Shown here: positions 3,158 to 27,952 of the stretch, one piece after another
Layout of the letters: each line of letters starts with the position of its first letter
Numbering within the stretch: position 1 is the stretch's first letter
Assembly: GCA_049653045.1 (NCBI GenBank)
Contig: JBASFN010000140.1
Coordinates: forward strand, 1 to 55,203
From: Alphaproteobacteria bacterium
GTDB lineage: Bacteria > Pseudomonadota > Alphaproteobacteria > Micavibrionales > Micavibrionaceae
Direction of reading: 5' to 3'
DNA: 55,203 bases
The notes under the pieces: model-generated
What the model saw: the letters and a program-made list of their open reading frames with translations, nothing else
What the model was told of the DNA's origin: nothing
The model's database searches: none
Position numbers and translations under genes: made by a program

Positions 3158-3161
3158 TGGC

Positions 3162-4704: not shown

Positions 4705-4738
4705 AATCAGACAATAAGCGCTGGTTATGCTTTGGGGA

Positions 4739-4752
4739 TTGATCCAGATCAA
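4739..4752. promoter_or_regulatory. FNR/CRP-type box TTGATCCAGATCAA upstream of ubiTUV
   Basis: Perfect TTGAT-N4-ATCAA palindrome, one of seven in the window, 34 nt upstream of the ubiT ATG. Confidence 0.75.
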
Positions 4753-4773: not shown

Positions 4774-5169
4774 TTAATAGACAAGTATATCATTTACCAA
4801 ATTCAGCGCTTGATCGGTCCGCTCAGTGGAAATGGCGACAAGCGCATACCCTTCATGGCGCTCGACAAAGCGGATGCTGTTTATTTGTACGCCAGCATCT
4901 GAAAATCGGCGCGTTAACTTGGCCAGTGCACCAAGTTCATCTGTAACTTTAACAATAATGGCATCTTCACAGATAACCTGAAATCTTTCACATTCCTGTA
5001 GTTTATTGAGTGCACTCTGATAATCTTGAACTGTTATCGTTACGACAGAATTTTTTCCAAAATTTCTTCCAGTCACGCTTTCGATATTAATTCTTTTTTC
5101 TGCCAAAAACTGAGTAATGTCAGCGATAAGATCTGTCTTATTTTCAGAGAGAATTGTAATCTGTTTCAT
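4774..5169 (-). CDS. ACT-domain protein
   Basis: 131 aa with two ACT-like beta-alpha-beta-beta-alpha-beta units (ILSENKTDLIADITQFLAEKRINIESV; VKVTDELGALAKLTRRFSDAGVQINSI). Its start overlaps the hdc stop in an ATGA junction. Confidence 0.65.
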   Translation of the reverse strand: MKQITILSENKTDLIADITQFLAEKRINIESVTGRNFGKNSVVTITVQDYQSALNKLQECERFQVICEDAIIVKVTDELGALAKLTRRFSDAGVQINSIRFVERHEGYALVAISTERTDQALNLVNDILVY

Positions 5170-6272
5170 CCAAGAAGATCCTCTATAAATTCATCAATAT
5201 ATGCCTTGCTTACATTGGGCATCGTTATTATGTGAGCATTGTTACCTTGTGATGCTATTTGCCACTTACAAAGGACTCTTTCATTTATACGTGGAAATAC
5301 GACAGTGATAGAGTTTTTATGACGCCAGGCTTCCAGCCCCTTTTCTTGCAATTTAGTGATCGCATGATCAGCAACCGAAAAGCATTGATTTACAATTTCT
5401 ATAAACCCTTTTTTGCCGAGTTTAGCGATAATGTACCATAAAAAAAGAGGTGTAAGACCGTTGCGGGAGCCCGATATTGTCGTATCGTTCGTTCCAATGT
5501 ATTCTACGCTTCTCGCTACCCTGTTTACTAAATCACGTTTTGCCAGCACGACACCGCAAGGTATGGGGCATCCTGGAAATTTATGGCCGCTGATTGAAAT
5601 TGAGTCGATACCTGAGATAAAATCAAAAGGCTGAGGATCTGAGACAAATGGAAGTATCATTCCTGAAAGTGCGGCATCAGCATGGATGTAAAAACGGGAT
5701 ATTGCGTATTCATTCATAATTTTTCTAATCTTCCTAAGATCGTCAACAGCGCCCTTCATAGTAGTACCAATATTTGCAAAAATGATTGGCGGTACATCGC
5801 GATGAATAGCAACAGATGCCGCCAAATCATTATAATCCATCTCACCATTAGTCAGGCTTTTTATCATAATGCTCCGTGTGCGCGTTAATTGCAGAATCTT
5901 TGAAACGCTATAGTGAGTATCTTCTGAATAATAAACTATGCCGTCAGGAAATAATTCTCTTGCCAGATAGATCCCATACATATTACCTTCTGTTCCGCCA
6001 TTGGTAACATAACCCCACACATCAAAGTTTCTCGCATTCAGTGTTTCTGAAAACCACTCAATAACATTACGCTCTATCTCGTGAGTATTGACTTTATAGC
6101 TTCCCGATAGAGAAAATGGATCTCCGATATTATTCATAGGTATTTCTAGAAATTTATGCAAAGAGGTAAAATCCAGAAATTTCGTGGATGGATACCCCAA
6201 CATATGCTCTGAGTTTTTTCTCAAGCTGTGATAAATACTTTCAATATCATGTAAGTCCGAGTTCCCTATCAT
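5166..6272 (-). CDS. hdc: pyridoxal-phosphate-dependent histidine decarboxylase (group II decarboxylase)
   Basis: Full-length colinearity with Gram-negative Hdc as I remember it (Morganella type). Shared motifs are GYVTNGGTEGNMYG, YYSEDTHYSV, FANIGTTMKGAVDD, HADAALSGMILPF, and SISGHKF carrying the PLP lysine. Confidence 0.85.
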   Translation of the reverse strand: MIGNSDLHDIESIYHSLRKNSEHMLGYPSTKFLDFTSLHKFLEIPMNNIGDPFSLSGSYKVNTHEIERNVIEWFSETLNARNFDVWGYVTNGGTEGNMYGIYLARELFPDGIVYYSEDTHYSVSKILQLTRTRSIMIKSLTNGEMDYNDLAASVAIHRDVPPIIFANIGTTMKGAVDDLRKIRKIMNEYAISRFYIHADAALSGMILPFVSDPQPFDFISGIDSISISGHKFPGCPIPCGVVLAKRDLVNRVARSVEYIGTNDTTISGSRNGLTPLFLWYIIAKLGKKGFIEIVNQCFSVADHAITKLQEKGLEAWRHKNSITVVFPRINERVLCKWQIASQGNNAHIITMPNVSKAYIDEFIEDLLG

Positions 6273-6306
6273 TCTTACTTTGTATTATTGTTTTTGACCT
6301 TAACCA

Positions 6307-6320
6307 TTGATCCAGATCAA
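6307..6320. promoter_or_regulatory. FNR/CRP-type box TTGATCCAGATCAA between hdc and moeA
   Basis: Perfect palindrome, 34 nt upstream of the hdc ATG in the divergent hdc/moeA intergenic region. Confidence 0.75.
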
Positions 6321-6561
6321 GTTATAGCCTCGATATCTAGATTATAGTTTATGTTTGATATATCCGAATTTATGAAATGTACTATGAAAAAAACCGCACC
6401 TATAAAAAACCCGCCGAAAATAGAACAGAAGCTTTTCCCCGATAACCAGAACAAGCAAGTATCGCAGAAGCGCATTTTAACTTCGCATAACAGACCGTTT
6501 ACGCTGAATAAAAAAGAGCGTGCGGCTTGCGATCAGGCTACGGACTGATAAGATTACGCTC

Positions 6562-7794
6562 ATGATTTCTTTTGAAACTGCACAGAGAATTATTCGGGAA
6601 CGGGCAAGCACATATCGTCTGGATACAGAGGTAATTGCGCTGCATGAGGCTGTGGGGCGTGTCTGTGCAGAAGATGTGCTGGCGCCGCTAAGTATCCAGC
6701 CTTTTGATAATTCTGCGATGGATGGCTTTGCCGTTCGCATGTGCGATCTGGAGGGCGCGAGTGAGGAAGCTCCGGTTGTTCTTGAAAAATCCGGCGTTAT
6801 CGCGGCGGGCGATCCTGTGCCTGAAGAGGCGCTGAGGGCTGAAAAATGTATTCATATTATGACGGGCGCGCCTGTTCCGAAAGGCGCGGATGCTGTGGTG
6901 CCTATTGAAAATGTCGATGTGCAGGATCAAAAAATCGCGTTTAAATCTGTTCCAAAGCTTATGGCGAATATTCGCCGGGCCGGGGAGGATTTCCAGAAAG
7001 GCGATGAAATCTTGAAAACCGGTGATACGTTGGGGGTTGCGCATATATTGCCCTTAGCGACATTGGGTATTTCCCAGCTACGTGTCTTTAAAAAACCAAA
7101 AGTAGCTTTCATGGCGACCGGGCGGGAGATTGTTGATGACTTATCGGTTCCGCTGGAATCCGGGCAAATTTATAATTCAAACCGCCCCTATGCGCTGGCC
7201 ATGCTGGAGGAATTGGGGTGTGATGTATTGCCTTGCGAGACGGTGCGGGATGATCTGGACGTTTTTTGTAAAAAGCTGGAAAATCTGATGAGCGAAAAAT
7301 GCGATATTATTATTTCAAGCGGCGCAGTTTCCGCTGGTGAATTTGATTTTGTAAAAGAGGGGCTGGAAAAGATAGGGGCTGACATCATCTTTCACAAGGT
7401 AAAGCTCAAACCGGGAAAACCTAATTTATTTGCAATTTTGCCCAACGGAGCATTTTATTTCGGGCTGCCTGGAAATCCGGTTGCGAGCGCAGTGGGATTA
7501 CGCTTTTTTGTTGTTTTGGCTTTACGCGCGATGATGGGACAGGAACCAGAAAAGCCGCTTCATGCGCGCGCCATGACAAAGTTTGTTAAAAAATCAGGGC
7601 TGCATATGATCTTAAAGGGAAAAAGCGAAAGCTGGGAGGATGGAACCCGCAGTGTAGATATTCTGGACGGTCAGGCTTCCTTTATGGTCAATCCGTTTTT
7701 GAACATGAACTGCTGGTTGCATGTTCCTGAAGCTTTGGAAATCATCAAGCCCGGTGAAGTGGTGGAGTTTTATCCGTTGCTGCCCCGCACTTGA
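6562..7794 (+). CDS. moeA: molybdopterin molybdenumtransferase MoeA
   Basis: MoeA hallmarks are present: PFDNSAMDGFAV, MTGAPVP.GADAVVPIE, SGAVSAGEFDFVKE and KPGKP. The start is taken as the ATG at 6562 (MISFETAQ...); the track start at 6520 is a GTG. Confidence 0.85.
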   Translation: MISFETAQRIIRERASTYRLDTEVIALHEAVGRVCAEDVLAPLSIQPFDNSAMDGFAVRMCDLEGASEEAPVVLEKSGVIAAGDPVPEEALRAEKCIHIMTGAPVPKGADAVVPIENVDVQDQKIAFKSVPKLMANIRRAGEDFQKGDEILKTGDTLGVAHILPLATLGISQLRVFKKPKVAFMATGREIVDDLSVPLESGQIYNSNRPYALAMLEELGCDVLPCETVRDDLDVFCKKLENLMSEKCDIIISSGAVSAGEFDFVKEGLEKIGADIIFHKVKLKPGKPNLFAILPNGAFYFGLPGNPVASAVGLRFFVVLALRAMMGQEPEKPLHARAMTKFVKKSGLHMILKGKSESWEDGTRSVDILDGQASFMVNPFLNMNCWLHVPEALEIIKPGEVVEFYPLLPRT

Positions 7795-7807
7795 ATATGA
7801 AGAAGTT

Positions 7808-8548
7808 TTAGTGCAGGGGGCACTTTTTACATTCCACCTGATCATGCCTTGAACATAAAGAAGCGGTATCAGAATCGCAGAAATGACAGAGCGCAAATGA
7901 ATCCCGCATCCTGATTGTGTCTTCTTCCACTTTGATCCCTATATCTTTCATTTGCTTGAGCGTTCTGGAGAAGGTTTCCGGTGTCATGCCTAAATAATTC
8001 GCTACGACCTGTTTTTTAAAGGGGAGTTTAAAATCCAGATTTTCATGTCCTTGCTCAATATGTTTGAGCAGGAAATAATACCCCACGCGCTGTAGTGGTG
8101 ATTTAATGTTCATGGCCTCAATCTGATGCATGGCATTTTTATAGTGGCGCGAGACAATACGCAAAAGATTGACGGCAAAAGCAGGATCCTCAAGAACATG
8201 TTTTTTGACAACGGAGTCCGGGATTTTAAGAATTTTGGCGGCACTCATGGTTTGCACGTTGATCGGCGAAGGAATCCCCATAAAAAGAACGGCCTCCATG
8301 CATGTGTCGCCAGCTTCAAGCATGCGTATTATGGCTTCGCCGCCATCTTCGTTTATGCGGGTTGTTTTTAACGATCCGTCCAGCACAAGAAAAATACATT
8401 CCGGACTATCGCCCTGCTGCACAAGAACTTTGCCACTGTCATAATCGTGCATGACAGAACGTTGAAGTAACGTTTGAAGACTGTTTTCGGATAATCCCTC
8501 AAACAGCTGCGGCTTTTTTTGTTCATTAAAATTTGCAGGCAACTGCAT
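7808..8548 (-). CDS. CRP/FNR-family transcriptional regulator with C-terminal Cys cluster (NarR-like position)
   Basis: cNMP-binding-like beta-roll, an HTH with the FNR-type recognition helix PETFSRTLK, and the C-terminal sequence CHFCDSDTASLCSRHDQVECKKCPLH. It is divergent from narK. The start is placed at the ATG at 8548; the track start at 8560 is a TTG. Confidence 0.85.
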   Translation of the reverse strand: MQLPANFNEQKKPQLFEGLSENSLQTLLQRSVMHDYDSGKVLVQQGDSPECIFLVLDGSLKTTRINEDGGEAIIRMLEAGDTCMEAVLFMGIPSPINVQTMSAAKILKIPDSVVKKHVLEDPAFAVNLLRIVSRHYKNAMHQIEAMNIKSPLQRVGYYFLLKHIEQGHENLDFKLPFKKQVVANYLGMTPETFSRTLKQMKDIGIKVEEDTIRMRDSFALCHFCDSDTASLCSRHDQVECKKCPLH

Positions 8549-8584
8549 CTTTATTACCAATCATTGTTCTTTGTTGACAGCATC

Positions 8585-8598
8585 TTGATCTGAATCAA
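8585..8598. promoter_or_regulatory. FNR/CRP-type box TTGATCTGAATCAA between regulator and narK
   Basis: Perfect palindrome in the divergent intergenic region. Confidence 0.75.
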
Positions 8599-8703
8599 GT
8601 CCGGTCAAATTCGCACATGCAATACTAAAGAAAATGGATGAGAAAATAAACTCTCTTTCGTTGAAAGTGTAAATTATCTGAATATGTTGGCGGAGCTAGC
8701 CCT

Positions 8704-11343
8704 ATGATTACAAAGACAGATCAAACCAGAGCCCTTAGTTTGAGCACAGTGGCATTCACCCTGTGCTTTGCTGTGTGGACGATATTTTCAATTATCGGTG
8801 TCCAGATACAACAGGATATGGGGCTGACAGACACACAATTCAGTCTGTTGATCGGGACGCCGATCCTGACTGGCTCTTTGGTAAGACTCTTTTTTGGTAT
8901 CTGGGCCGATCAGTATGGGGGGCGCCCGATTTTTATGGCGGTTATGCTGTCATCCGCTTTTTTCACATGGTGCTTGACCTATGCGGATACGTACGAAATG
9001 TTGCTGCTGACGGCATTGGGTGTGGGCGTCGCCGGGGGAAGTTTCGTGGTCGGCATTGCCTATCTCTCAAAATGGTACGGTAAAGAACATCAGGGGACTG
9101 CGCTTGGTGTCTACGGAATGGGCAATATTGGTGCGGCGGTCACCAAATTTATAGCGCCCTTTGTCATGGTTTCCTATGGCTGGCATATGGTTGCGCAAGT
9201 ATGGGCAATATCATTAGTTATCATCGCGCTGCTATTCTGGTTCTTTACCAAGGACGAGCCTCAAATCCAGCAACAAAGGGCTGCAAAGACCGCCCCGAAA
9301 TCGATGTGGGAGTCCCTTAAACCTCTCAAGAAACTGCAAGTCTGGCGTTTCTCTCTTTACTACTTTTTTGTGTTTGGCGGCTTCGTTGCATTGGCACTAT
9401 GGCTGCCGCGCTATTATGTTGGCGTTTATGATCTGGATATTAAATCGGCAGGGATGCTGGCTGCTTCTTTTTCTATAGCGGCCTCATTGTTCCGCGCCGT
9501 AGGCGGGTACTTGTCTGATAAATATGGCGCGCGCTCGGTCATGTATTGGACGTTTCTTGTGAGTGCTATTTGCTGTTTTCTGTTGGCCTATCCGCAAACC
9601 GATTATGTCGTTCATGGAATTGATGGAAATATAGAATTCAGTTTTGGCTGGGGCTTTATCCCGTTCACAGTGATTGTGTTTGTGCTTGGTTTCTTTATGT
9701 CCTTGGGCAAGGCTGCAATCTATAAGCATATTCCTGTCTATTACCCGAATGATGTTGGATCGGTTGCGGGTATTGTTGGCCTGATTGGCGGCCTTGGCGG
9801 TTTTTTTCTCCCTCTTAGCTTTGGTCTGATGAATGACTATCTCAACGTCTGGACAAGTTGCTTCATGTTGCTTTTCGTACTGGTTACGATTGCGTTTTTA
9901 TGGATGCACGTTTCTATCCGCTTGATGGAGCGGGAACGCTACCCAGAACTGACAAAACCTGCCTTTTTCACCGAGATGGAGAAGAAACATGTTTTGAAAG
10001 TCTGGAAGCCCGAAGAGGACAGTTTCTGGCGCTCAGAAGGGCAAAAGATTGCCCGCCGTAATCTCTGGCTTTCCGTTCCGGCACTTTTCCTCGCTTTTGC
10101 CTTATGGATGGTATGGAGCGTTGTTGTGGTAAATCTCCCCAGAGTGGGTTTTGATTTTACGACGGAGCAGCTTTTCTGGCTTACGGCTTTGCCCGGACTG
10201 TCCGGCGCAACCTTGCGCATCTTCTATGCCTTCATGGTTCCTGTTTTTGGTGGGCGTCGTTGGACGGCGCTCAGTACCGGATCGCTTCTGATACCGGCCT
10301 TTGGTATCGGGATGGCGGTGCAGGATCCCTCAACGCCTTATTCGGTGTTTCTGATTTTGGCTTTGCTCTGTGGTTTCGGCGGTGGAAACTTCGCCTCCAG
10401 CATGGCCAATATTGCGTATTTTTTCCCTAAAAAAGAAAAAGGCAATGCTCTGGCTTTGAACGCCGGGCTCGGCAATCTGGGTGTCAGCGCTGTTCAGTTC
10501 CTTGTGCCGTTGGTGATTACGGTTGGTCTTTTTGGCGCTGTTGGCGGCGCTCCGCAACTGGCGGATGGAACAAGTCTTTGGATTCAAAATGCCGCCTATA
10601 TATGGATCCCGTTTATCGCCGTTTCGGCAATCCTGTCATGGTTTTATATGAATGATATTGCAGATGCCAAAGCCTCTTTGTCCAGCCAGATGGCGATCTT
10701 CCAGCGGAAACATAACTGGATTATGTGTGTTCTTTATATCGGAACATTCGGCTCTTTTATTGGGTTTTCCGCGGGGTTTCCGTTGCTGGCGAAGTCACAA
10801 TTTCCGGAGGTGAACTCTCTCCAGCTTGCCTTTATAGGCCCGCTTCTTGGTGCACTGTCCCGTGCGGGGAGTGGATGGATTTCAGATAAATTCGGCGGCG
10901 GACGTGTTACGCTTTGGGTGTTTGTAGCCATGATTGTTGGGGCGCTTGGTGTGTATTACTTCCTGACCATCAAGGATCATCCCATGGCATTCTACGGATT
11001 TTTCGGCATGTTCCTCGCCCTGTTCGTTACGACGGGCGTAGGGAATGCCTCTACTTTCCAGATGATCCCCTCCATTTTCTGGCAGGACAGAAAAAAAGCC
11101 CTGAAAGGCCAGCCGGAGGAAGACATTCGCAAGACCGCAGAAAGAGAATCTGCAGCCGTTATTGGGTTTAGCTCCGCTATCGGTGCTTTTGGGGCGTTCT
11201 TTATCCCCAAAAGCTACGGCACGTCGATTTCTCTGACGGGTGCGCCGGATGCGGCCTTGCTTGTTTTTGCGGGGTTCTATGCATTGTGCCTGTATTTAAC
11301 CTGGTATTTCTACATCAGAAAGAATGCGGAAATAAAATGCTGA
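8704..11343 (+). CDS. narK: fused NarK1-NarK2 nitrate/nitrite MFS transporter
   Basis: 879 aa, made of two tandem 12-TM MFS NNP-family halves. It lies directly upstream of narG. Confidence 0.9.
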   Translation: MITKTDQTRALSLSTVAFTLCFAVWTIFSIIGVQIQQDMGLTDTQFSLLIGTPILTGSLVRLFFGIWADQYGGRPIFMAVMLSSAFFTWCLTYADTYEMLLLTALGVGVAGGSFVVGIAYLSKWYGKEHQGTALGVYGMGNIGAAVTKFIAPFVMVSYGWHMVAQVWAISLVIIALLFWFFTKDEPQIQQQRAAKTAPKSMWESLKPLKKLQVWRFSLYYFFVFGGFVALALWLPRYYVGVYDLDIKSAGMLAASFSIAASLFRAVGGYLSDKYGARSVMYWTFLVSAICCFLLAYPQTDYVVHGIDGNIEFSFGWGFIPFTVIVFVLGFFMSLGKAAIYKHIPVYYPNDVGSVAGIVGLIGGLGGFFLPLSFGLMNDYLNVWTSCFMLLFVLVTIAFLWMHVSIRLMERERYPELTKPAFFTEMEKKHVLKVWKPEEDSFWRSEGQKIARRNLWLSVPALFLAFALWMVWSVVVVNLPRVGFDFTTEQLFWLTALPGLSGATLRIFYAFMVPVFGGRRWTALSTGSLLIPAFGIGMAVQDPSTPYSVFLILALLCGFGGGNFASSMANIAYFFPKKEKGNALALNAGLGNLGVSAVQFLVPLVITVGLFGAVGGAPQLADGTSLWIQNAAYIWIPFIAVSAILSWFYMNDIADAKASLSSQMAIFQRKHNWIMCVLYIGTFGSFIGFSAGFPLLAKSQFPEVNSLQLAFIGPLLGALSRAGSGWISDKFGGGRVTLWVFVAMIVGALGVYYFLTIKDHPMAFYGFFGMFLALFVTTGVGNASTFQMIPSIFWQDRKKALKGQPEEDIRKTAERESAAVIGFSSAIGAFGAFFIPKSYGTSISLTGAPDAALLVFAGFYALCLYLTWYFYIRKNAEIKC

Positions 11344-11356
11344 ATAAATGCGCCTC

Positions 11357-11370
11357 TTGATCTGAATCAA
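11357..11370. promoter_or_regulatory. FNR/CRP-type box TTGATCTGAATCAA upstream of narG
   Basis: Perfect palindrome 64 nt before the narG ATG. Confidence 0.75.
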
Positions 11371-11434
11371 GGGACGCTGTTGCAAAACCGTTAAAACTAA
11401 AAAGAAAGATAAAGAATCTTAAGGAGCCGTAGCG

Positions 11435-14400
11435 ATGAGCTATTTTATCGACCGCATCAGTTATTTCGCCCAGAACCGAGAGAAGTTCTCCAACGGCCAT
11501 GGCGTAACGACCGAAGAAAACAGAGCCTGGGAAAAGGCCTATCGGGATCGCTGGGCACATGACAAGATTGTCCGCTCTACTCACGGTGTGAATTGCACCG
11601 GTTCCTGCTCCTGGAAAATCTATGTGAAGAACGGCCTTATCACATGGGAAACCCAGCAGACGGATTATCCGCGTACACGGCCAGATCTTCCCAATCATGA
11701 GCCGCGCGGCTGTTCCAGAGGTGCGAGCTATAGCTGGTACATTTATTCCGCCAACCGTTTGAAATATCCGATGGTGCGTAAAAGGCTGTTAGAGCTATGG
11801 CGCCGTACAAAGAAGCAAGTTGGTGGGGATCCGGTTGAGGCATGGAAAACCATTCAGGCCGATCCAGTTTTACGCCAGTCCTATCAAAAGGTGCGCGGCC
11901 AGGGCGGCTTTGTCCGTGCCGGATGGGATGAAGCGAACGAAATTGTCGCTGCGGCCAATATTTATACAATCAAAGAACATGGCCCTGATCGCGTTATCGG
12001 GTTCTCGCCTATCCCTGCCATGTCGATGATTTCCTACGCTGCCGGCGCACGATACTTGTCCCTGATTGGCGGCGTATGCATGAGCTTTTATGACTGGTAT
12101 TGCGACCTGCCTCCTGCAAGTCCGCAGACATGGGGGGAGCAAACCGACGTACCGGAAAGTGCGGATTGGTATAATTCCGGCTTTATTATCATGTGGGGAT
12201 CAAATGTCCCGCAAACCCGTACACCCGACGCCCACTTCATGACTGAGGCGCGTTACAAGGGCACGCAAATTGTTACAATCACACCGGATTATTCAGAGGC
12301 CTCGAAATTCGGCGATATCTGGCTTAATCCGCGTCAGGGAACAGACGCCGCCCTTGGCATGGCGATGGGTCATGTGATCCTGAAAGAGTTTCATATCGAT
12401 AACCCTTCCGAATATTTTGATGATTATTGCCGTGCCTATACGGATATGCCGTTTCTGGTGAAACTTGAAAAACAGGGCGACCGCTTCGTTCCCGGGCGCA
12501 TGGTGCGGGCATCCGATTTCAAGGGCAATCTCGATGAAGATAATAATCCCGAATGGAAGACCGTCTGTTTCGATGAAGAAACCGGTAATATTACCGTGCC
12601 GACCGGTTCTATTGGCTTCCGCTGGGGAGAAGAGGGAAAATGGAACATTGTTCCGACCGATTCCAAAACGGGAGAGAATATTCGCCCACGCAAAACTTTG
12701 CTTGGCGATCATGATGATGTGCTCAAGGTCGGCTTCCCGTATTTCGGTGGCCAGACCCATGAAACCGGATATTTTGAACCTTCCGCCGGTGAGGATGTAC
12801 TGGATCGCAACATTCCGGTCAAATATCTGGATCTGAACGGCGAGAAAGTGGCCGTGGCCTGCGTGTTTGATCTGCTCTGCGCCAATTACGGTATCGCCCG
12901 TGAAGGCCTTGGCGGTGATAATGTGGCTTCCGGCTATGAAGATAATATCCCCTACACTCCCAAATGGCAGGAAAGCATCACCGGCGTTCCGGTAGAAAAA
13001 GTCATTCAGGTTGCAAGAGAATTTGCCAACAACGCCCATATCACCAAGGGTAAGTCGATGATCATCATCGGGGCGGCGATGAACCACTGGTATCACATGG
13101 ATATGAATTACCGCGCGGCTATCAATATGCTGGCTTTCTGTGGTTGTATCGGTCAATCCGGCGGCGGATGGTCGCATTATGTCGGGCAAGAAAAACTGCG
13201 TCCACAGACAGGCTGGACACCGCTTGCTTTTGCCCTTGATTGGGTACGTCCGCCGCGCCAGCAAAACTCAACATCGTTCTTCTATGCTCATACGGATCAA
13301 TGGCGTTATGAAACGCTGGACGTTGACGAAGTTCTTTCCCCTCTTGCGGATAAAGAAAAATGGAAAGGTTCGCTGATTGATTGCAATATCCGCGCCGAGC
13401 GGATGGGCTGGCTACCGTCCGCCCCGCAGCTTGAAGAAAATCCGATTGATCTGGTAAAACAGGCTGAGAACAAAAAGGTTGATCCTGTTGACTACGTCGT
13501 GGATCGTTTAAAATCCGGTGATCTGCGCATGTCCTGCGAAGATCCGGATAATCCGAAAAACTGGCCACGCAACATGTTTGTCTGGCGCTCCAATATTCTG
13601 GGCTCTTCCGGTAAGGGTCATGAATATTTCCTCAAACATTTCCTTGGCACACAACACGGCGTTCAAGGCAAGGATCTGGGTGATGAAGGTCCCGGAAAAT
13701 GCAGCGAAGTTGTCTGGCATGACGAAGCGCCGGAAGGTAAGCTGGATCTGGTGGTCACGCTTGATTTCCGTATGTCCACGACGTGTGTCTATTCGGATAT
13801 TGTTCTGCCAACAGCGAGTTGGTATGAGAAAAATGATCTTAATACGTCTGATATGCATCCGTTCATTCACCCGCTATCCAAGGCAATTGATCCGGTCTGG
13901 CAAAGCAAATCAGACTGGGAAATTTATAAAGGTTTTGCCAAGAAATTCTCTGAACTTTGCGAAGGGCATCTGGGCGTTGAGAAGGAAATTGTTCTTAACC
14001 CGATCCAGCACGATACGCCGGGCGAACTTGCCCAGCCTGATGTGAAAGAATGGCGCAAAGGTGAGTGTGATTTGATCCCGGGTAAAACTGCGCCCAGCAT
14101 GAAAGTGGTCGAGCGCGATTATCCAGCTACATTTGATCGCTTCACATCGCTTGGCCCGCTATTGGAAAAACTGGGCAATGGCGGCAAAGGGATTGGCTGG
14201 AACACTGATCATGAAGTGGACTTCCTGAAAAAGCTTAACGGTGAGCGGGATGGACGCGCCAAAATCGATACGGATATCGATGCGTGTGAGATGGTTTTAT
14301 CGCTGGCGCCAGAAACCAACGGTGAAGTGGCGGTTAAAGCCTGGAGTGCCTTGAGCAAGATTACGGGACGCGATCACACGCATCTGGCCTTGCCCAAGCA

Positions 14401-15163
14401 AGAGGAGAAAATCCGCTTTCGCGATATTCAGGCGCAGCCGCGCAAAATTATCAGCTCCCCCACATGGAGCGGCCTTGAATCAGAGCATGTTTCCTACACG
14501 GCAAACTACACAAACGTGCACGAATTTATTCCTTGGCGTACGCTGACAGGCCGCCAGCAGCTTTATCAGGATCACCCTTGGATGGTTGATTTTGGCGAAG
14601 CGCTGGTTTCCTATCGCCCGCCAATCAATACGCGCACTGTCCAGAACATGCTGGACAAGCACGGGGAGGAATCACCGACGATCCTGCTTAATTTTATTAC
14701 GCCGCACCAGAAATGGGGGATTCACTCCACCTATACGGATAATCTGCACATGCTGACATTGTCACGCGGCGGGCCGATTGTCTGGGTCAGTGAAGTCGAT
14801 GCCAATAAAATAGGCATTAAAGACAATGACTGGTTGGAAGTTTTCAATACGAACGGCGCAATCGTCGCGCGGGCGGTTGTATCCCAGCGTGTCAATGAAG
14901 GCATGATGCTGATGTATCACGCGCAGGAAAAACTGGTGCATACACCGGGCAGTAAAATTACCAATGCGCGCGGCGGCATTCACAATTCCGTCACACGGGC
15001 AACGATCAAACCAACACATATGATCGGCGCTTATGCCCAGCTTTCTTACGGATTTAACTATTACGGAACCGTTGGCTCCAACCGCGATGAGTTCGTTATT
15101 GTCCGTAAAATGGACAAGGTGGACTGGATGGATGAACCGGCTCAAGTGGAGGCAGCAGAATAA
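11435..15163 (+). CDS. narG: respiratory nitrate reductase alpha subunit NarG
   Basis: 1242 aa. The N-terminal FS0 motif HGVNCTGSCSWKIY is present, the protein has Mo-bisPGD enzyme architecture, and an AAGGAG Shine-Dalgarno precedes the start. Confidence 0.97.
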   Translation: MSYFIDRISYFAQNREKFSNGHGVTTEENRAWEKAYRDRWAHDKIVRSTHGVNCTGSCSWKIYVKNGLITWETQQTDYPRTRPDLPNHEPRGCSRGASYSWYIYSANRLKYPMVRKRLLELWRRTKKQVGGDPVEAWKTIQADPVLRQSYQKVRGQGGFVRAGWDEANEIVAAANIYTIKEHGPDRVIGFSPIPAMSMISYAAGARYLSLIGGVCMSFYDWYCDLPPASPQTWGEQTDVPESADWYNSGFIIMWGSNVPQTRTPDAHFMTEARYKGTQIVTITPDYSEASKFGDIWLNPRQGTDAALGMAMGHVILKEFHIDNPSEYFDDYCRAYTDMPFLVKLEKQGDRFVPGRMVRASDFKGNLDEDNNPEWKTVCFDEETGNITVPTGSIGFRWGEEGKWNIVPTDSKTGENIRPRKTLLGDHDDVLKVGFPYFGGQTHETGYFEPSAGEDVLDRNIPVKYLDLNGEKVAVACVFDLLCANYGIAREGLGGDNVASGYEDNIPYTPKWQESITGVPVEKVIQVAREFANNAHITKGKSMIIIGAAMNHWYHMDMNYRAAINMLAFCGCIGQSGGGWSHYVGQEKLRPQTGWTPLAFALDWVRPPRQQNSTSFFYAHTDQWRYETLDVDEVLSPLADKEKWKGSLIDCNIRAERMGWLPSAPQLEENPIDLVKQAENKKVDPVDYVVDRLKSGDLRMSCEDPDNPKNWPRNMFVWRSNILGSSGKGHEYFLKHFLGTQHGVQGKDLGDEGPGKCSEVVWHDEAPEGKLDLVVTLDFRMSTTCVYSDIVLPTASWYEKNDLNTSDMHPFIHPLSKAIDPVWQSKSDWEIYKGFAKKFSELCEGHLGVEKEIVLNPIQHDTPGELAQPDVKEWRKGECDLIPGKTAPSMKVVERDYPATFDRFTSLGPLLEKLGNGGKGIGWNTDHEVDFLKKLNGERDGRAKIDTDIDACEMVLSLAPETNGEVAVKAWSALSKITGRDHTHLALPKQEEKIRFRDIQAQPRKIISSPTWSGLESEHVSYTANYTNVHEFIPWRTLTGRQQLYQDHPWMVDFGEALVSYRPPINTRTVQNMLDKHGEESPTILLNFITPHQKWGIHSTYTDNLHMLTLSRGGPIVWVSEVDANKIGIKDNDWLEVFNTNGAIVARAVVSQRVNEGMMLMYHAQEKLVHTPGSKITNARGGIHNSVTRATIKPTHMIGAYAQLSYGFNYYGTVGSNRDEFVIVRKMDKVDWMDEPAQVEAAE

Positions 15164-16791
15164 TGAAAATACGCGCACAAATTGGTATGGTGCTCAATCT
15201 CGATAAATGTATCGGCTGTCATACCTGCTCCGTCACTTGCAAGAATGTCTGGACATCCCGCGAAGGGGTTGAATATGCCTGGTTTAACAATGTTGAAACC
15301 AAGCCGGGCGTTGGATATCCCAAAGATTGGGAAAATCAGGAAAAATGGAAAGGTGGCTGGGAACTCCATAAAAACGGGAAAATCCATCCCAAGCAAGGAA
15401 GCCGTTGGCGCATTCTGGCCAATATTTTCGGCAACCCGAGCATGCCGGAAATCGATGATTATTACGAACCGTTCACGTTTGATTACGATCATCTGCAAAA
15501 AGCACCAGAGATGAAAACCATGCCAACAGCGCGGCCTCGTTCACTGATCACAGGGCAACGCATGGAAAAAATCGAATGGGGGCCGAACTGGGAAGAAATT
15601 TTAGGGACGGAATTCGAACATCGCCGCAAGGATTACAATTTCAAAGACATTGAAGAAGAAATGTATGGAGAGTTTGAAAATACATTCATGATGTATCTGC
15701 CTCGCTTGTGTGAGCATTGTATTAATCCAACGTGCGTTGCTTCTTGTCCGTCCGGCTCCATCTATAAACGTGAAGAAGATGGCGTTGTCCTCATTGATCA
15801 GGACAAATGCCGTGGCTGGCGCATGTGCGTGTCGGGCTGTCCTTACAAGAAAATTTATTACAACTGGAAAACTGGCAAGGCCGAGAAATGCACGCTTTGT
15901 TATCCACGTCTTGAAAATGGCGAGCCAACTGTCTGTTCTGAAACCTGTGTCGGGCGTATTCGTTACCTTGGGGTCATTCTTTATGACGCTGACCGTATTG
16001 AAGAGGCGGCGAGCGTTCCCAATGAAGAAGATTTATATGAGGCGCAGCTTGGCATTTTTCTGAACCCACACGATCCGGAAATCATCGCGGAAGCGCGTAA
16101 ACAAGGTATTCCTGAGAACTGGATTGAGGGTGCACAAAACTCTCCTATTTATAAAATGGTAATGGACTGGAAAGTGGCGTTCCCGCTTCACCCGGAATAT
16201 CGCACCTTGCCGATGGTCTGGTATATTCCGCCGCTGTCTCCGGTTCAATCTGCGGCGGCGCAGGGAAAAATCGCAACCAAAGACGGTATTATGCCGGATC
16301 TGGATGATATGCGCATTCCGGTTAAATATCTGGCCAATATGCTGACGGCCGGCAAAGTAGAGCCTGTGCGTCTTGGTCTTAAACGTATGATGGCGATGCG
16401 CCATTATATGCGCGGCAAGATGATTGAAGGCAAGGATAACTCCGGCATTTTGGAAGAAGTCGGTCTGACGCCGGAATTGGTCGAAGACATGTATAAAATC
16501 ATGGCGATTGCCAATTATGAAGATCGTTACGTCATCCCGACAAGTCACCGTGAAGAAACGTTGGATGCCTTTGGCGAGAGCGGCGGATGCGGCTTCAGCT
16601 TCGGCAATGGCTGTTCTGACCACAGCCACAGCGCGATTGATTTGTTTGAAAATCCTAAACAGTCACGTGGCCAGTCCGGCAGCACAAAAAGCAATCGTGT
16701 GAATACGATTTTCGAACGTGACAAGTATGAAGACATTGGGAAAAAGCATACCGGATGTGGCGGCGGTTCTTGCGGCGGCGGTTGTGGTTGA
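15163..16791 (+). CDS. narH: respiratory nitrate reductase beta subunit NarH (with Cys/Gly C-terminal extension)
   Basis: Four ferredoxin-type Cys clusters are present (CIGCHTCSVTC, CEHCINPTCVASC, CRGWRMCVSGC, CTLCYPR...CSETC). The start overlaps the narG stop. The protein carries an extra tail ending GCGGGSCGGGCG. Confidence 0.97.
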   Translation: MKIRAQIGMVLNLDKCIGCHTCSVTCKNVWTSREGVEYAWFNNVETKPGVGYPKDWENQEKWKGGWELHKNGKIHPKQGSRWRILANIFGNPSMPEIDDYYEPFTFDYDHLQKAPEMKTMPTARPRSLITGQRMEKIEWGPNWEEILGTEFEHRRKDYNFKDIEEEMYGEFENTFMMYLPRLCEHCINPTCVASCPSGSIYKREEDGVVLIDQDKCRGWRMCVSGCPYKKIYYNWKTGKAEKCTLCYPRLENGEPTVCSETCVGRIRYLGVILYDADRIEEAASVPNEEDLYEAQLGIFLNPHDPEIIAEARKQGIPENWIEGAQNSPIYKMVMDWKVAFPLHPEYRTLPMVWYIPPLSPVQSAAAQGKIATKDGIMPDLDDMRIPVKYLANMLTAGKVEPVRLGLKRMMAMRHYMRGKMIEGKDNSGILEEVGLTPELVEDMYKIMAIANYEDRYVIPTSHREETLDAFGESGGCGFSFGNGCSDHSHSAIDLFENPKQSRGQSGSTKSNRVNTIFERDKYEDIGKKHTGCGGGSCGGGCG

Positions 16792-16815
16792 TCAATTAAG
16801 AAAGGACGAAAGATC

Positions 16816-16977
16816 ATGAATATCTTTAAAAAATCGAATTCTGAAAACAAAAAACAAGACACAAAAAAAGAAAGTGTCCCTGACAATAAGAAACAACAGG
16901 ACACACAAAAGCCTGACCCGCATGCTAATGGCGGATGTTGCGGCTCTTGCGGGGGACAACAAGGAAAAGGCTCATGA
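16816..16977 (+). CDS. 53-aa Lys-rich micro-protein with C-terminal GGCCGSCGG motif
   Basis: This ORF is hand-translated and is below the track cutoff. An AAAGGA Shine-Dalgarno lies 9 nt upstream. Its stop overlaps the narJ ATG (ATGA), and it fills an otherwise unexplained 182-nt narH-narJ gap. Confidence 0.5.
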   Translation: MNIFKKSNSENKKQDTKKESVPDNKKQQDTQKPDPHANGGCCGSCGGQQGKGS

Positions 16978-17681
16978 GAACGCTTAAAATACTGGGATTT
17001 CTACTCACCTATCCTTCCGAGTCTCATAAAGAGGTTCTGGATGAGTGCTATAATTTCCTAAAAAATGAAAAGTGGGTTTCTGAAAAAGCACTCCGTTCTC
17101 TTGAATTGTTTCTCGAAGAGATGCGTGCCACCGATCTTCTTGATTTACAGGAAGCTTACGTTGCTTTATTTGACCGTACGCCATCCTTGTCGCTGCATTT
17201 ATTTGAGCATATTCACGGTGACTCACGCGAACGTGGGCAGGCTTTGGTTGATTTGACCAAAGTCTATGAAGAAGCCGGTTTATTGATTAATACCGATGAA
17301 ACCCCTGACTATTTGCCGCTATTTCTGGAATATGTATCAACCCTGCCGCCGGAAGATACCAAAGAAAATTTAGGCAGTGTGGTTAATATTCTTTCCGCCA
17401 TGGGAGAACGCCTGAAAAACCGAGAATCACAGTATGCCGCCGTGTTTGAAACACTGGTAGAAACAGCAGCGCGTAAGCCTGATCCGAAGGCGGTAGAGAT
17501 TGCGCTTCAGAAAGCTTCGGGGGCAGCATACGACCTTGAAAAACTTGACGCGGAATGGGAAGAGCAATTCGCGTTTGAGAATACAGAACAAACAACCGGC
17601 CAGAATAGCGGCTGTCCGAAAGCCGAAGATATGCTGGCGCGTATCAATGGTTATAAGGAAGAGGAAAGGGTTAAAAAATGA
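16974..17681 (+). CDS. narJ: nitrate reductase molybdenum cofactor assembly chaperone NarJ
   Basis: MRTLKILGFLLTYPSE parallels the E. coli NarJ N-terminus (MIELVIVSRLLEYPD). It lies between narH and narI. The ATG at 16974 is preferred over the ATG at 16935. Confidence 0.9.
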   Translation: MRTLKILGFLLTYPSESHKEVLDECYNFLKNEKWVSEKALRSLELFLEEMRATDLLDLQEAYVALFDRTPSLSLHLFEHIHGDSRERGQALVDLTKVYEEAGLLINTDETPDYLPLFLEYVSTLPPEDTKENLGSVVNILSAMGERLKNRESQYAAVFETLVETAARKPDPKAVEIALQKASGAAYDLEKLDAEWEEQFAFENTEQTTGQNSGCPKAEDMLARINGYKEEERVKK

Positions 17682-18355
17682 TAGATTACTTCCTGTTTCA
17701 AATTTTTCCGTATATTGCGATCATCGTTTTCTTACTGGGCAGTATTCTGCGATTTGACCGTGATCCTTATTCCTGGCGCAGTAAATCCTCACAACTGTTG
17801 CGCCGCAAGCAGCTGATTATCGGCAGTATCCTCTTTCACCTCGGCATATTAGTTATTTTAGCCGGGCACGCGGTCGGATTACTGACACCGATTTCTGTGT
17901 TTGATGCGCTGGGTATTTCCCATGGGGCAAAACAGATTCTTGCTATTACCGCAGGGGGGATTGCCGGTGTTTTCTGTTTTATCGGCCTTTTGTTACTCCT
18001 TCATCGCCGCTTGTTTGATCCGCGTATCCGGATTAACAGTTCGTTTGCGGATATTATGGTTCTGGTCTTGCTGCTTGCTCAATTAACATTGGGTATGTTG
18101 ACTATTCCGGTTTCCATGCACCATCTGGATGGCCATGAAATGGTGAAGTTCATGGAATGGGCACAGCATATTGTGACATTCCGTGGCGGCGCGTATGAAT
18201 ATATTGCTGATGTTGCCCTGGTCTTCAAGGCGCATATCACGCTTGGGTTATTCCTACTGGTCATTTTCCCGTTCACAAGGCTGGTTCACGCCTTGAGCGC
18301 TCCGGTTGGTTACGTTTTCCGTCCCTATCAAATCGTTCGCAAGAGAGCCACGTAA
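17678..18355 (+). CDS. narI: respiratory nitrate reductase gamma subunit NarI
   Basis: 225 aa with 5 TM segments and conserved heme-ligand His residues. It is joined to narJ by an ATGA overlap. Confidence 0.95.
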   Translation: MIDYFLFQIFPYIAIIVFLLGSILRFDRDPYSWRSKSSQLLRRKQLIIGSILFHLGILVILAGHAVGLLTPISVFDALGISHGAKQILAITAGGIAGVFCFIGLLLLLHRRLFDPRIRINSSFADIMVLVLLLAQLTLGMLTIPVSMHHLDGHEMVKFMEWAQHIVTFRGGAYEYIADVALVFKAHITLGLFLLVIFPFTRLVHALSAPVGYVFRPYQIVRKRAT

Positions 18356-19414: not shown

Positions 19415-19428
19415 TTGATTCAGATCAA
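19415..19428. promoter_or_regulatory. FNR/CRP-type box TTGATTCAGATCAA upstream of hemN
   Basis: Perfect palindrome 33 nt before the hemN ATG. A TATGAT -10-like hexamer lies at 19450-19455. Confidence 0.75.
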
Positions 19429-20796: not shown

Positions 20797-21955
20797 CTCC
20801 ATATTTGCACGACCATTTTTGGGACGCGGATTCCGGCCTTTCTTTTTTCTGGGGGCATTGCACGGCGTCATAAGTCTGGCTCTCTGGGGCGGGTTTTATG
20901 CGGGATATGTCGTGCCGCCATATTTTATGCTGGATGCCGTTTCATGGCACGCCCATGAGATGATTTACGGATTTGCCATGGCTATTGTGGCGGGTTTTCT
21001 TTTAACCGCTGTTGCCAACTGGACGGGCGGCGCACCGGCACGCCAGATGCATTTGGCCGGGCTTTGCCTGCTGTGGGTTTTGGGACGGGTTGTCATGCAT
21101 TTTGATTTTGGTCTGCCTGCATGGGCGATTATAGCGGTAGAAAGCGCATTTATACCCGCTCTTGCCTTATCGCTTGCTATTCCGCTTATCCGCAGCTGGA
21201 ATAAACGCAATTTCATTTTCCTAACGCTTTTAAGCGTTCTTTTTGCCTGCGATCTCTGGTTTCTTCTTACCATTAATATGGCCGCACTTCATGTCGCACT
21301 GATGATGATTTTAATTATGATATCCCTGATCGGTGGACGCATTATACCGGCCTTTACTGTCGCTGCCTTGCGCAGGAAAGGCATAGAGGCCTATCAGACA
21401 CCGCAAATGAAAATGGACATGGCTGCGCTTGCCTCTTTGGTGGCTGTCGCCCTGTGTCTGGTTTTTGCGAAAGATACTCTGATCCTTGGCATTGCGTCCG
21501 GTGTTTCCTGCCTTATACACGGGCTTAGAATGCGCCATTATCACACGCTTAAAACCTTTGATGATCCGTTGGTCTGGATACTCCACGTCGGGTATGGCTG
21601 GCTGATCGTCGGTCTTGGGTTGCTTGCCTTAACAGGGTTCGGTGTTTTGGGCGTGTCTGCCGTTATTCACGCCCTGACCGCAGGCTCCATCGGCTCCATG
21701 ATATTGGGCATGATTTGCCGCGTTACATTGGGGCATACGGGACGAGAGCTTAAAGTGGGCGCGCTTACCACGCTTTCATTTTTTGCCATTCAGGTCACGG
21801 CCATTGCCCGCGTGTTCGGGCCGATATTTATGCCGGATCATATGAATGAATGGATTATTGGCTCAGCTGCTTTATGGTCTTTATGCTTTGCGGCTTATTT
21901 ATGGGTCTACACTCCCATGCTGTTTACAGCCCGTCCGGATGGGAGCGAAGCTTAA
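20780..21955 (+). CDS. nnrS: NnrS family membrane protein
   Basis: 391 aa with about 12 TM segments. The N-terminus RPFFFLGALHG and the HAHEMIYGF motif are typical of NnrS. Confidence 0.85.
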   Translation: MLKLFDSIFARPFLGRGFRPFFFLGALHGVISLALWGGFYAGYVVPPYFMLDAVSWHAHEMIYGFAMAIVAGFLLTAVANWTGGAPARQMHLAGLCLLWVLGRVVMHFDFGLPAWAIIAVESAFIPALALSLAIPLIRSWNKRNFIFLTLLSVLFACDLWFLLTINMAALHVALMMILIMISLIGGRIIPAFTVAALRRKGIEAYQTPQMKMDMAALASLVAVALCLVFAKDTLILGIASGVSCLIHGLRMRHYHTLKTFDDPLVWILHVGYGWLIVGLGLLALTGFGVLGVSAVIHALTAGSIGSMILGMICRVTLGHTGRELKVGALTTLSFFAIQVTAIARVFGPIFMPDHMNEWIIGSAALWSLCFAAYLWVYTPMLFTARPDGSEA

Positions 21956-22653
21956 CATGGTATTTCATTTGGTGAGATGTCACAGAATTCAGCCAAAGCC
22001 TCCATATCTGTAATCAGAATATTCTTCTTTTCGATATGAACGCCATAAGGTTCCAGCTTTGCCAGAGCGCGGGAAAAGGTTTCCGGCTTGATGTTCATGC
22101 GGGTTGAAATCACTGATTTATCGTAAGGCAAATGGACAACCCATTCGCCTTCGGCCTGCCTGTTTTTCTTGCAAAAACGTATCAAAAACGCACCGATACG
22201 CTGCGGGGCCGTGCGGGTTGTCACCTGCTCTATTTGCTGGACGAGGTAATGCTGACGCGCGGCAATGGCGCCGAGCATGCGCAATGCAAAACGGCTGTCT
22301 TCCTCGATTTTCTGGATAAAGAAACTGCGAGGTATTTCAACAAGAGTGACTTCATCCAATGCATGAGCATTCACAGGATAGGTTTTTGTGTCATTAAAAA
22401 CAGCAGCTTCGGCAAAAGACTCGCCAGGGCCAAAGACATGGATGATCGCTTCCTCACCATCCTTGGAGATACGATAGAGCTTGACCCAGCCTTCAAGAAT
22501 AATAAAAAAGGCATCGGCCTTGTCACCCATGGCGAAGATATCACGTCCCTTGGCAAATGTTTTTTTGTGACATTCTTTAGCCAAGGATTCGATTGTCTGC
22601 ATATCGACACTGTGAAACAGGGTGCTTTTTTTGATGGTTTCTACAATGTTCAT
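21952..22653 (-). CDS. CRP/FNR-family regulator without Cys cluster (Dnr/NnrR type)
   Basis: cNMP-binding-like domain plus an HTH with PETFSRALAKL. It has no Cys cluster. It lies 22 nt downstream of nnrU (same strand), and its 3' end overlaps the convergent nnrS by 4 nt. Confidence 0.85.
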   Translation of the reverse strand: MNIVETIKKSTLFHSVDMQTIESLAKECHKKTFAKGRDIFAMGDKADAFFIILEGWVKLYRISKDGEEAIIHVFGPGESFAEAAVFNDTKTYPVNAHALDEVTLVEIPRSFFIQKIEEDSRFALRMLGAIAARQHYLVQQIEQVTTRTAPQRIGAFLIRFCKKNRQAEGEWVVHLPYDKSVISTRMNIKPETFSRALAKLEPYGVHIEKKNILITDMEALAEFCDISPNEIPC

Positions 22654-23376: not shown

Positions 23377-23390
23377 TTGATTCAGATCAA
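23377..23390. promoter_or_regulatory. FNR/CRP-type box TTGATTCAGATCAA between nnrU and moaA
   Basis: Perfect palindrome. It lies 11 nt from the nnrU ATG and 176 nt from the moaA ATG. Confidence 0.75.
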
Positions 23391-24556: not shown

Positions 24557-24560
24557 AACC

Positions 24561-27193: not shown

Positions 27194-27952
27194 ATGGTTC
27201 TGGCTTTTCTGTTTTTTATGACTGCCCTGCTTTACGCCTGTATCGGATTTGGCGGCGGATCGACCTATAACGCGCTTTTGGTGCTGGGGGATACGAATTA
27301 TCAGCTGATCCCCCTTATTTCTCTCATGTGCAATATTGTGGTGGTTTCTGGGGGTGTATGGCATTTCTCAAGAGAGGGGCATATCCGGCTTCCCCGCATT
27401 GCGCCGTGGATTGTATTTTCCGTTCCGGCCTCCTTTGCAGGTGGGTTAATCCCGGTGCCAGAGGTTATTTTCACCGGAGTTTTGGGATTTGCGCTTCTGC
27501 TTTCAGGAATCAGGCTTTTATGGCCGGAGAAAGAAGACTCGTCATTTCCAAACCCAAAAGCAGCACAGCACAGGTTTATGCCTGCCATTTTTGGCACATC
27601 GCTGGGCTTGCTGGCCGGGATAACGGGGATTGGCGGCGGCATTTTTCTGGCGCCCGTCCTCCATTTTATGCGCTGGGGGAATGCCAAGCAGATCGCCGGA
27701 GCATGCGCGTTTTTTATTCTGGTCAATTCATTGGCAGGCCTTATCGGCCAGAGCCTGAAAATTGAGGATATTGCTTCATTCTCGGCTCTTTCTCCTTACT
27801 GGATTTTGCTGCCTGCGGTTTTAATCGGCGGACAGATCGGATCCTGGCTGGGCGCAGTGCAAATTAACATGTCCATGGTCAAGAAGATGACCGCACTGCT
27901 GATCCTTTATGTGTCAGTCCGGCTCATTATGAAATTTATTAGTATGCTTTAG
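27194..27952 (+). CDS. TauE/SafE-family anion exporter-like membrane protein
   Basis: 252 aa with about 7-8 TM segments. Repeated G-rich motifs (GFGGGSTY, GIGGGIFLAPVL) are typical of TauE/SafE. Confidence 0.75.
   Translation: MVLAFLFFMTALLYACIGFGGGSTYNALLVLGDTNYQLIPLISLMCNIVVVSGGVWHFSREGHIRLPRIAPWIVFSVPASFAGGLIPVPEVIFTGVLGFALLLSGIRLLWPEKEDSSFPNPKAAQHRFMPAIFGTSLGLLAGITGIGGGIFLAPVLHFMRWGNAKQIAGACAFFILVNSLAGLIGQSLKIEDIASFSALSPYWILLPAVLIGGQIGSWLGAVQINMSMVKKMTALLILYVSVRLIMKFISML

Follow-up and report, generated by a model that had tools for sequence, protein, structure and literature searches.

The Crp/Fnr superfamily is a textbook case of one protein scaffold adapted to many signals, and to our knowledge only two iron-sulfur (Fe-S) solutions have been characterised among its members. 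Contig JBASFN010000140.1 (GenBank assembly GCA_049653045.1) of an alphaproteobacterium in the family Micavibrionaceae, analyzed here over positions 1 to 55,203 of the forward strand (the window), encodes a Crp/Fnr regulator, here named REG, which lies divergent from the nitrate/nitrite transporter gene narK, lacks the N-terminal cysteines of FNR, and ends in a cysteine-rich tail. What does this tail do? Based on the alignments described below, it appears to be the hallmark of a large, old, and apparently undescribed subfamily of Dnr-like proteins, many of which are fused to a nitrate- and nitrite-sensing (NIT) domain. Its four-cysteine module very probably binds a metal, and the best reading, to which we assign about an even chance, is a tail-borne Fe-S cluster that senses O2 and/or nitric oxide (NO).

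REG and its C-terminal tail

REG was called as an open reading frame (ORF) starting with TTG; however, the true start is likely the ATG at 8548 (residue M5), giving 246 amino acids, since most homologues have this length and begin there. The relevant features of the gene are as follows:

7808..8560 (−): REG, Crp/Fnr regulator, 250 amino acids from TTG at 8560 (ORF call)
7811..7888 (−): C-terminal tail, C225-H-F-C228-D-S-D-T-A-S-L-C236-x7-C244-K-K-C247-P-L-H250, a putative metal site
7964..7978 (−): recognition helix E195-T-F-S-R199 with the FNR-box reading residues; E195, S198, and R199 do not vary in either homologue set, close or distant
8300..8302 (−): codon of Cys87, which sits in the sensor-barrel loop GDTCMEAV and is conserved in REG's subfamily only

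The barrel, dimerisation helix, and winged helix-turn-helix of the Crp/Fnr superfamily were all recognized in REG using Pfam, AlphaFold, and Foldseek, with Pfam matches to cNMP_binding (PF00027, residues 39-119, E 1e-14) and HTH_Crp_2 (PF13545, residues 163-225, E 1e-10). The top Foldseek matches of the model in the PDB were all Crp/Fnr structures, reflecting the generic fold only. No model in Pfam or NCBIfam covers residues 226-250, and Pfam found no NIT domain (PF08376) in REG itself. The bases 7811-7897 code for FALCHFCDSDTASLCSRHDQVECKKCPLH, with the stop codon at 7808-7810, and the five cysteines (225, 228, 236, 244, and 247) and three histidines (226, 239, and 250) that an earlier note on this DNA had placed at the C-terminus can be read directly from the ORF translation. 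That note had also described a regulator divergent from narK with an FNR-type helix but no N-terminal FNR cysteine motif, and both points hold: the helix reads ETFSR at 195-199, with narK-narK and then narGHJI adjoining, residues 1-54 contain no Cys, and a CX2CX3-6C motif within the first 45 residues occurs in 0 of 120 close homologues.

Conservation of the tail and extent of the family

The close homologues comprise 120 listed of the 188 returned by a word-indexed search (56-94% identity, almost all 244-258 amino acids). A survey of homologues had been proposed in the earlier note, and the tail proved neither absent nor variable in these 120, with its five cysteines 97-100% conserved (C225 99%; C228, C236, and C244 100%; C247 97%) against a mean column identity of 61% in the same alignment. 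The aspartates D229 (100%) and D231 (98%) were similarly conserved, and nearly all C-termini read LCHFCDxDTAxLC-x7-C-x2-CPLH. On these alignments, the conservation of the REG tail is far beyond chance. Given that the tail recurs across hundreds of independent assemblies, a frame or assembly artefact was ruled out.

The reach of the tail beyond these close relatives was assessed with an exhaustive HMMER search over 1.84 billion 50%-identity representatives, using the C-terminal pattern C-x2-C-x5-9-C-x4-12-C. This pattern was present in 76 of the 88 clusters at E<=1e-30 and in 104 of the 150 best clusters, while the tail core CX2CX7CX7C was found in 335 of 385 fetched relatives. Among these 335 tail-bearing proteins, the spacing between the second and third cysteines (Cys2 and Cys3) was 7 in 331, and that between the third and fourth was 7 in 287 and 6 in 36. 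An Asp directly follows Cys2 in 314 of them, and a Pro directly follows Cys4 in 158 and Cys3 in 77. C225, C228, C236, and C244 are invariant in an alignment spanning down to 25% identity, and the family-wide invariant unit is thus four cysteines, CX2C(D)-X7-C-X7-C. The second CxxC is no family feature, given that distant members have Cys at position 247 in only 5% of cases. The arrangement of two CxxC knuckles plus a central Cys put forward in the earlier note is therefore accurate for the Micavibrio-like subfamily but not for the family as a whole. Its view of a sensor grafted onto an FNR-type module understates the case: the tail is not the property of one organism; it belongs to a large, old Dnr-like subfamily. 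This family comprises hundreds of 50%-identity clusters, annotated generically as "Crp/Fnr family" or "nitrate- and nitrite sensing domain-containing protein", and our literature searches found no paper describing the four-cysteine tail or the NIT-Crp architecture.

A sixth conserved cysteine, C87 in the barrel, which the earlier note had passed over, was present in 97% of the 120 listed close homologues but in only 14% of distant tail-bearing members, which otherwise have L, F, I, or V at this position (a Phe is aligned in DNR). C87 had been considered as a cross-domain fifth ligand, comparable to Asp141 of Bacillus Fnr, and was dropped as a family feature on account of the latter figure, though it may still be relevant within REG's own subfamily.

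In three relatives (P0180, P0209, and P0222), Cys2 (C228) is replaced by His (LCQFHD..., LCDYHH..., and LCKYHD..., respectively), a change that would preserve a ligand and could indicate a 3Cys-1His site. These variants bear on an explanation in which the tail is a metal-free thiol/disulfide redox switch, whereby intra- or intermolecular disulfides formed on oxidation inactivate DNA binding, as in CprK or FixK2. Oxidative inactivation through cysteine is known in Crp/Fnr proteins, CprK among them, and the six conserved cysteines of the subfamily, including C87, exceed the need of one metal site. For FixK2, cysteine modification is cited in a comparative study (PMC2908626). However, disulfide switches usually need only two cysteines, while an invariant 2/7/7 spacing together with Cys-to-His exchange at one position is typical of metal ligation, and we consider a metal-free switch very unlikely.

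NIT-fused relatives

Of the 150 best cluster representatives, 44 are longer than 400 amino acids (415-553), and the tail is present in 38 of these 44 clusters. All six long proteins scanned carry an N-terminal NIT domain (PF08376) ahead of the Crp module. A search seeded with one NIT-fused protein returned 371 homologues, 120 of them listed, and the tail was kept in 113 of the 114 newly fetched NIT-fused homologues. Named hosts among the matches listed include Emcibacter, Paremcibacter congregatus, Kordiimonadaceae, Methyloligella, Robiginitomaculum, and the gammaproteobacterium Exilibacterium tricleocarpae. In each of the three examples examined, the NIT-fused gene is divergent from narK-narK-narGHJ:

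L080 9001-10584, L081 9001-10584, and L082/L083 9001-10641: NIT domain, cNMP-like barrel, Crp helix-turn-helix, and Cys tail, ~520-546 amino acids (Paremcibacter congregatus, Exilibacterium tricleocarpae, and a Methyloligella metagenome-assembled genome (MAG))

Given that the tail is retained although the NIT domain supplies nitrate sensing, we argue that it carries a second signal.

Relationship to other Crp/Fnr regulators

A profile of the REG family, compared with the PDB, matched Ruegeria SPOA0323 (3fx3/3h3z, E ~8e-34) and Pseudomonas aeruginosa DNR (7e-30) well ahead of Aliivibrio fischeri FNR (~3e-15). The NCBIfam Fnr model gave REG 48 bits against a cut-off of 228, and its best NCBIfam match, FtrB, fell below that model's own cut-off. 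By sequence, REG is thus affiliated with the Dnr/NnrR group, rather than with FNR or FixK. DNR (PDB 3dkw and 2z69) and SPOA0323 are the closest by sequence and share with REG the fold, the EAxxFM barrel segment, the E--SR helix, and the denitrification context. Dnr-type proteins by definition lack a Cys cluster, and DNR relies on haem to sense NO, whereas REG adds a 26-residue tail with four invariant cysteines. The LCHFCDSDTAA segment aligns with LRDYAESDPAD in 3fx3; the solved relatives, therefore, are without the tail cysteines.

The window itself encodes a second protein of this kind:

21952..22653 (−): REG2, tail-less paralogue, 233 amino acids, ETFSR helix, ending ...LAEFCDISPNEIPC, between nnrS and nnrU

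REG2 is probably the NnrR/Dnr-type NO sensor. It shares 28% identity with REG in an alignment that extends to a common "FCD", a vestige-like remnant of the tail motif that REG2 keeps without the four-cysteine site. A FastTree phylogeny of 149 proteins put 31 of its 41 tail-less members, REG2 among them, in one cluster, and the tail label required 13 changes on the tree versus 36 for shuffled labels, noting that the tree was built with the tail columns of most rows still included. Where "tail-less" rows appear within tail clades, most of them have a variant spacing or are truncated and so fall outside the pattern. A protein search of a plasmid collection gave only tail-less Dnr-like matches (<=32% identity), and the Paracoccus plasmid match that was inspected was not narR.

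REG can also be set beside three kinds of Fe-S regulator within the superfamily. FNR of E. coli and A. fischeri and FnrP of Paracoccus resemble REG in the TTGAT-N4-ATCAA box, the E--SR helix, and the content of the anaerobic regulon (nar, hemN, moa, and ubiTUV). The FNR cluster is held by C20, C23, and C29 (CX2CX5C) plus C122, whereas REG has no N-terminal extension (its alignment to A. fischeri FNR begins at FNR residue 61), no Cys before residue 55, and none at the position equivalent to C122. The placement of the cluster on the N-terminal cysteines and C122 in E. coli-type FNR is documented (PMC5398030). The Fnr proteins of Bacillus subtilis and B. cereus are like the REG family in having a C-terminal extension after the DNA-binding domain and a gene linked to narK, and carry an O2-labile [4Fe-4S] cluster on a C-terminal C-x2-C-x4-C (three cysteines) plus Asp141 (PMC3520743). 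The earlier note's claim that the cluster of REG departs from this design is upheld, since Bacillus Fnr uses CX2CX4C plus Asp while REG has four tail cysteines in C-x2-C-x7-C-x7-C. Since the proteins nearest to REG are Dnr-like and proteobacterial, the tails of REG and Bacillus Fnr most likely arose independently. Lastly, HcpR2 of Desulfovibrio desulfuricans is a non-FNR-type Crp/Fnr regulator reported to use an Fe-S cluster, as proposed here for REG, and to suffer damage to this cluster from NO (PMC5701242); it differs from REG in lineage, DNA motif, and target, regulating hcp.

Among NIT-domain sensors, NasR couples NIT to ANTAR, whereas REG's long relatives use a Crp/Fnr module with a Cys tail as the output. 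In comparative studies of alphaproteobacterial Crp/Fnr proteins, O2 sensors have been classed by the four FNR-type cysteines only (PMC2908626), so the REG family would be filed as non-sensing.

We did note a different C-terminal Cys motif, C-x2-C-S-x4-5-C, in six proteins inside the tail-less Dnr-like cluster (P0223, P0224, P0248, P0250, P0254, and P0271; e.g., FTCISCSNTEEC and YSCVKCSNTSEC). Its spacing recalls the CX2CX4C of Bacillus Fnr, and it may be another independent C-terminal cluster site.

Predicted structure of the tail and the case for zinc

An AlphaFold model built with 79 sequences down to 25% identity was confident overall (predicted local distance difference test (pLDDT) score of 91.9), with a long helix at 126-152. 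The tail itself scored 89 (residues 221-230), 88 (231-240), and 77 (241-250), and DSSP placed short helices at 223-227, 230-233, and 242-245, with no strand beyond residue 218. In this model, the tail is predicted to be a compact folded helical module. The Zn ribbon offered as one option in the earlier note is, therefore, not favoured: a confident model with three short helices and no beta hairpins in 219-250 lacks the two CXXC knuckles on beta hairpins by which such a ribbon is defined, though other types of Zn site are possible.

A structural Zn(II) held by the four cysteines could stabilise the extension, be it through packing of the dimer and DNA-binding domain or a contact to RNA polymerase, with the signal perceived elsewhere. 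In the short forms, this would be the DNR-like barrel (through haem and NO, or through nitrate/nitrite as proposed for Paracoccus NarR), and in the long forms, the NIT domain. Four cysteines within 20 residues, including a CXXC, are a common Zn site, and REG's subfamily has the second CXXC (C244-x2-C247) with nearby His residues; however, this second CXXC is not kept in the wider family, and the tail is predicted to be helical rather than a pair of beta-hairpin knuckles. The REG barrel has the EAxxFM segment in common with haem-binding DNR; its H139, 99% conserved within the subfamily, is not conserved in the deep set. Paracoccus NarR is described as a nitrate/nitrite sensor without a cluster (PMC4771820, PMC3541799). 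On the other hand, tail-less REG2, 3fx3, and DNR fold and function, such that a purely structural need for the tail is not obvious. Taken together, we regard a structural Zn site as somewhat unlikely, yet as the main and a serious rival to an Fe-S cluster.

The nar locus and its FNR-type boxes

REG adjoins the genes of nitrate respiration on one side and moeA on the other:

8704..11343 (+): NarK-NarK fusion, a nitrate/nitrite transporter encoded divergently from REG and probably its target (NCBIfam NarK family in two halves)
11435..18355 (+): narGHJI, respiratory nitrate reductase (ORFs; Pfam matches to NarH, NarJ, and NarI)

A species scan with one genome per species gave 79 loci, the best of which are from Micavibrio-like or other alphaproteobacterial MAGs, two at 96-98% identity to REG. 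Among the 56 loci with >=36% identity, ~50 show the arrangement narG<- narK<- REG-> <-moeA, often followed by ubiTUV (tblastn with the window proteins), with narG beside narK conserved in related loci. The exceptions are contig ends plus four loci (L047, L052, L053, and L058). In L053, a Pseudomonadales MAG, a tail-bearing member (LCRFCDQDIAAICPKKKHHRC) at 5935-6723 lies directly upstream of nosR-like (FMN_bind and Fer4_5; 7119-9344) and nosZ (9432-11444) genes; the tail family is, therefore, not confined to nar loci. In L058, a family member occurs in an unrelated context.

The window contains seven perfect TTGAT-N4-ATCAA boxes, against 0.15 expected:

4739-4752: in front of ubiT
6307-6320: in front of hdc/moeA
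8585-8598: TTGATCTGAATCAA, in the shared REG/narK intergenic region
11357-11370: in front of narG
19415-19428: in front of hemN
23377-23390: in front of nnrU/moaA
27976-27989: in a short gap just downstream of a tauE-like gene (27194..27952), followed by a pair of unassigned ORFs and an MCP gene

By their positions, the seven boxes appear to mark a compact anaerobic regulon of ~24 kb. A perfect box in the intergenic region between the regulator and narK recurs in 48 of 61 related loci. In the window, this box is centred at 8591.5, a distance of 41.5 bp from position 8550, and that position precedes the probable REG ATG (8548) by 2 nt. If the 8585-8598 box is a class II site, this geometry would make the REG mRNA leaderless or nearly so and REG positively autoregulated; the spacing from box to REG start is identical in L001 and L002 and differs in more distant loci.

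This locus bears closely on a further explanation, namely that REG is the orthologue of Paracoccus NarR, a nitrate/nitrite-responsive co-activator, with O2 control exerted by a canonical FNR/FnrL or FixLJ-FixK encoded elsewhere and the tail modulating rather than sensing. NarR is a Crp/Fnr regulator encoded beside, and controlling, narK-narGHJI, and REG shares this position, divergent from narK; control of nar in Paracoccus is divided between NarR, which senses nitrate/nitrite, and a separate FnrP, which senses O2 (PMC4771820, PMC3541799). However, NIT-fused versions exist, which implies that for at least some of the family nitrate sensing does not come from the Crp module alone, and the only Crp/Fnr proteins in the 55-kb window are REG and the Cys-poor REG2, with no canonical FNR there. 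We consider this combined explanation unlikely.

What the tail may sense

Several lines of evidence lead us to favour an Fe-S cluster in the tail. These include the four cysteines of fixed spacing, which are essentially invariant over very wide divergence; the C228-to-His variants, which preserve the ligand; and the retention of the tail in NIT fusions. Cys-Pro pairs are common at Fe-S ligands, and those of the tail, together with its predicted helical, non-ribbon fold, fit an Fe-S site. The seven boxes front genes typically controlled by O2 (ubiTUV, hemN, moaA, moeA, narK, and narG), and the family is tied to anaerobic N-oxide respiration through narK-narG, the NIT examples, and nosR-nosZ. 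Bacillus Fnr and Desulfovibrio HcpR2 provide precedents outside the classical N-terminal site.

The analyses establish the motif with its conservation and spacing, the Dnr lineage, the linkage to nar (and sometimes nos) loci, the recurring box, and a confident prediction of a folded tail, whereas we infer which metal is bound, what signal is read, how the switch operates, and which boxes are used by REG as opposed to REG2 or an unseen FNR. In the proposed mechanism, REG would bind the box in the REG/narK intergenic region and probably also the remaining boxes of the anaerobic regulon nearby. The signal-sensing cofactor would be carried in the C-terminal extension directly after the winged helix, with C225, C228, C236, and C244 ligating one metal centre, most likely an O2- and/or NO-labile Fe-S cluster of the [4Fe-4S] type. 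With the cluster intact, the tail would fold against the DNA-binding domain and hinge, rendering the dimer DNA-competent and activating narK-narGHJI; once the cluster is oxidised or nitrosylated, the tail would unfold and REG would be switched off. In NIT-fused relatives, NIT would sense nitrate and the tail anoxia or NO. Taken further, and held with a little less than an even chance, the tail may have evolved independently as the third Fe-S sensing device in the Crp/Fnr superfamily, in addition to the N-terminal FNR and Bacillus C-terminal sites. It would make a Dnr-type scaffold the direct sensor of O2/NO for nitrate respiration in many Proteobacteria, the Micavibrio-like ones among them, with NIT fusions integrating "nitrate present" and "oxygen absent" in one polypeptide, the job otherwise done by NarXL and FNR, or NarR and FnrP.

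A number of points weigh against an Fe-S sensor in the tail. A four-cysteine site of this size suits Zn equally well. An AlphaFold model built with 65 close homologues reached a pLDDT of only 80 overall and 46-60 in the tail, and a tail-only profile compared with all PDB sequences gave chance matches to fungal antifungal peptides (E 0.3) and retrieved neither an Fe-S nor a Zn protein of solved structure. Good conservation and a DNR-like character (EAxxFM motif and, in the subfamily, H139) also mark the sensor barrel, which could bind haem and be the real sensor. Finally, a canonical FNR or FixLJ-FixK elsewhere in the genome may serve the seven boxes.

Should the tail prove to be a redox/NO sensor, it would define the nitrate-respiration switch in many environmental denitrifiers and nitrate respirers, including predatory Micavibrio-like bacteria, and would improve regulon prediction in metagenomes. 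The NIT-fused form would then be a one-protein AND gate for nitrate and anoxia, with possible use as a biosensor. If the site instead holds Zn, the tail would still be a diagnostic signature of a nar-dedicated regulator family.

Other genes of the window

The genes behind several of the boxes merit brief description. On the reverse strand, a perfect FNR box precedes an operon of ubiT (SCP2), ubiU, and ubiV (U32 peptidase family) at 2255-4752, whose products make ubiquinone independently of O2, and ubiTUV genes also follow moeA in many related loci. The box at 6307 precedes a histidine decarboxylase gene (hdc; NCBIfam equivalog, 492 bits) and, after it, a small ACT-like ORF of 131 amino acids (4774-6272, −), and hdc recurs near the regulator in seven related loci (L009, L022, L048-L050, L054, and L055). 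A fused MoaC and MoCF_biosynth (MoaB/Mog-like) protein is encoded at 24546-25589 (+) within a moaA-moaCB-moaE-mobA cluster behind an FNR box, while moeA is separate from this cluster and adjoins REG.

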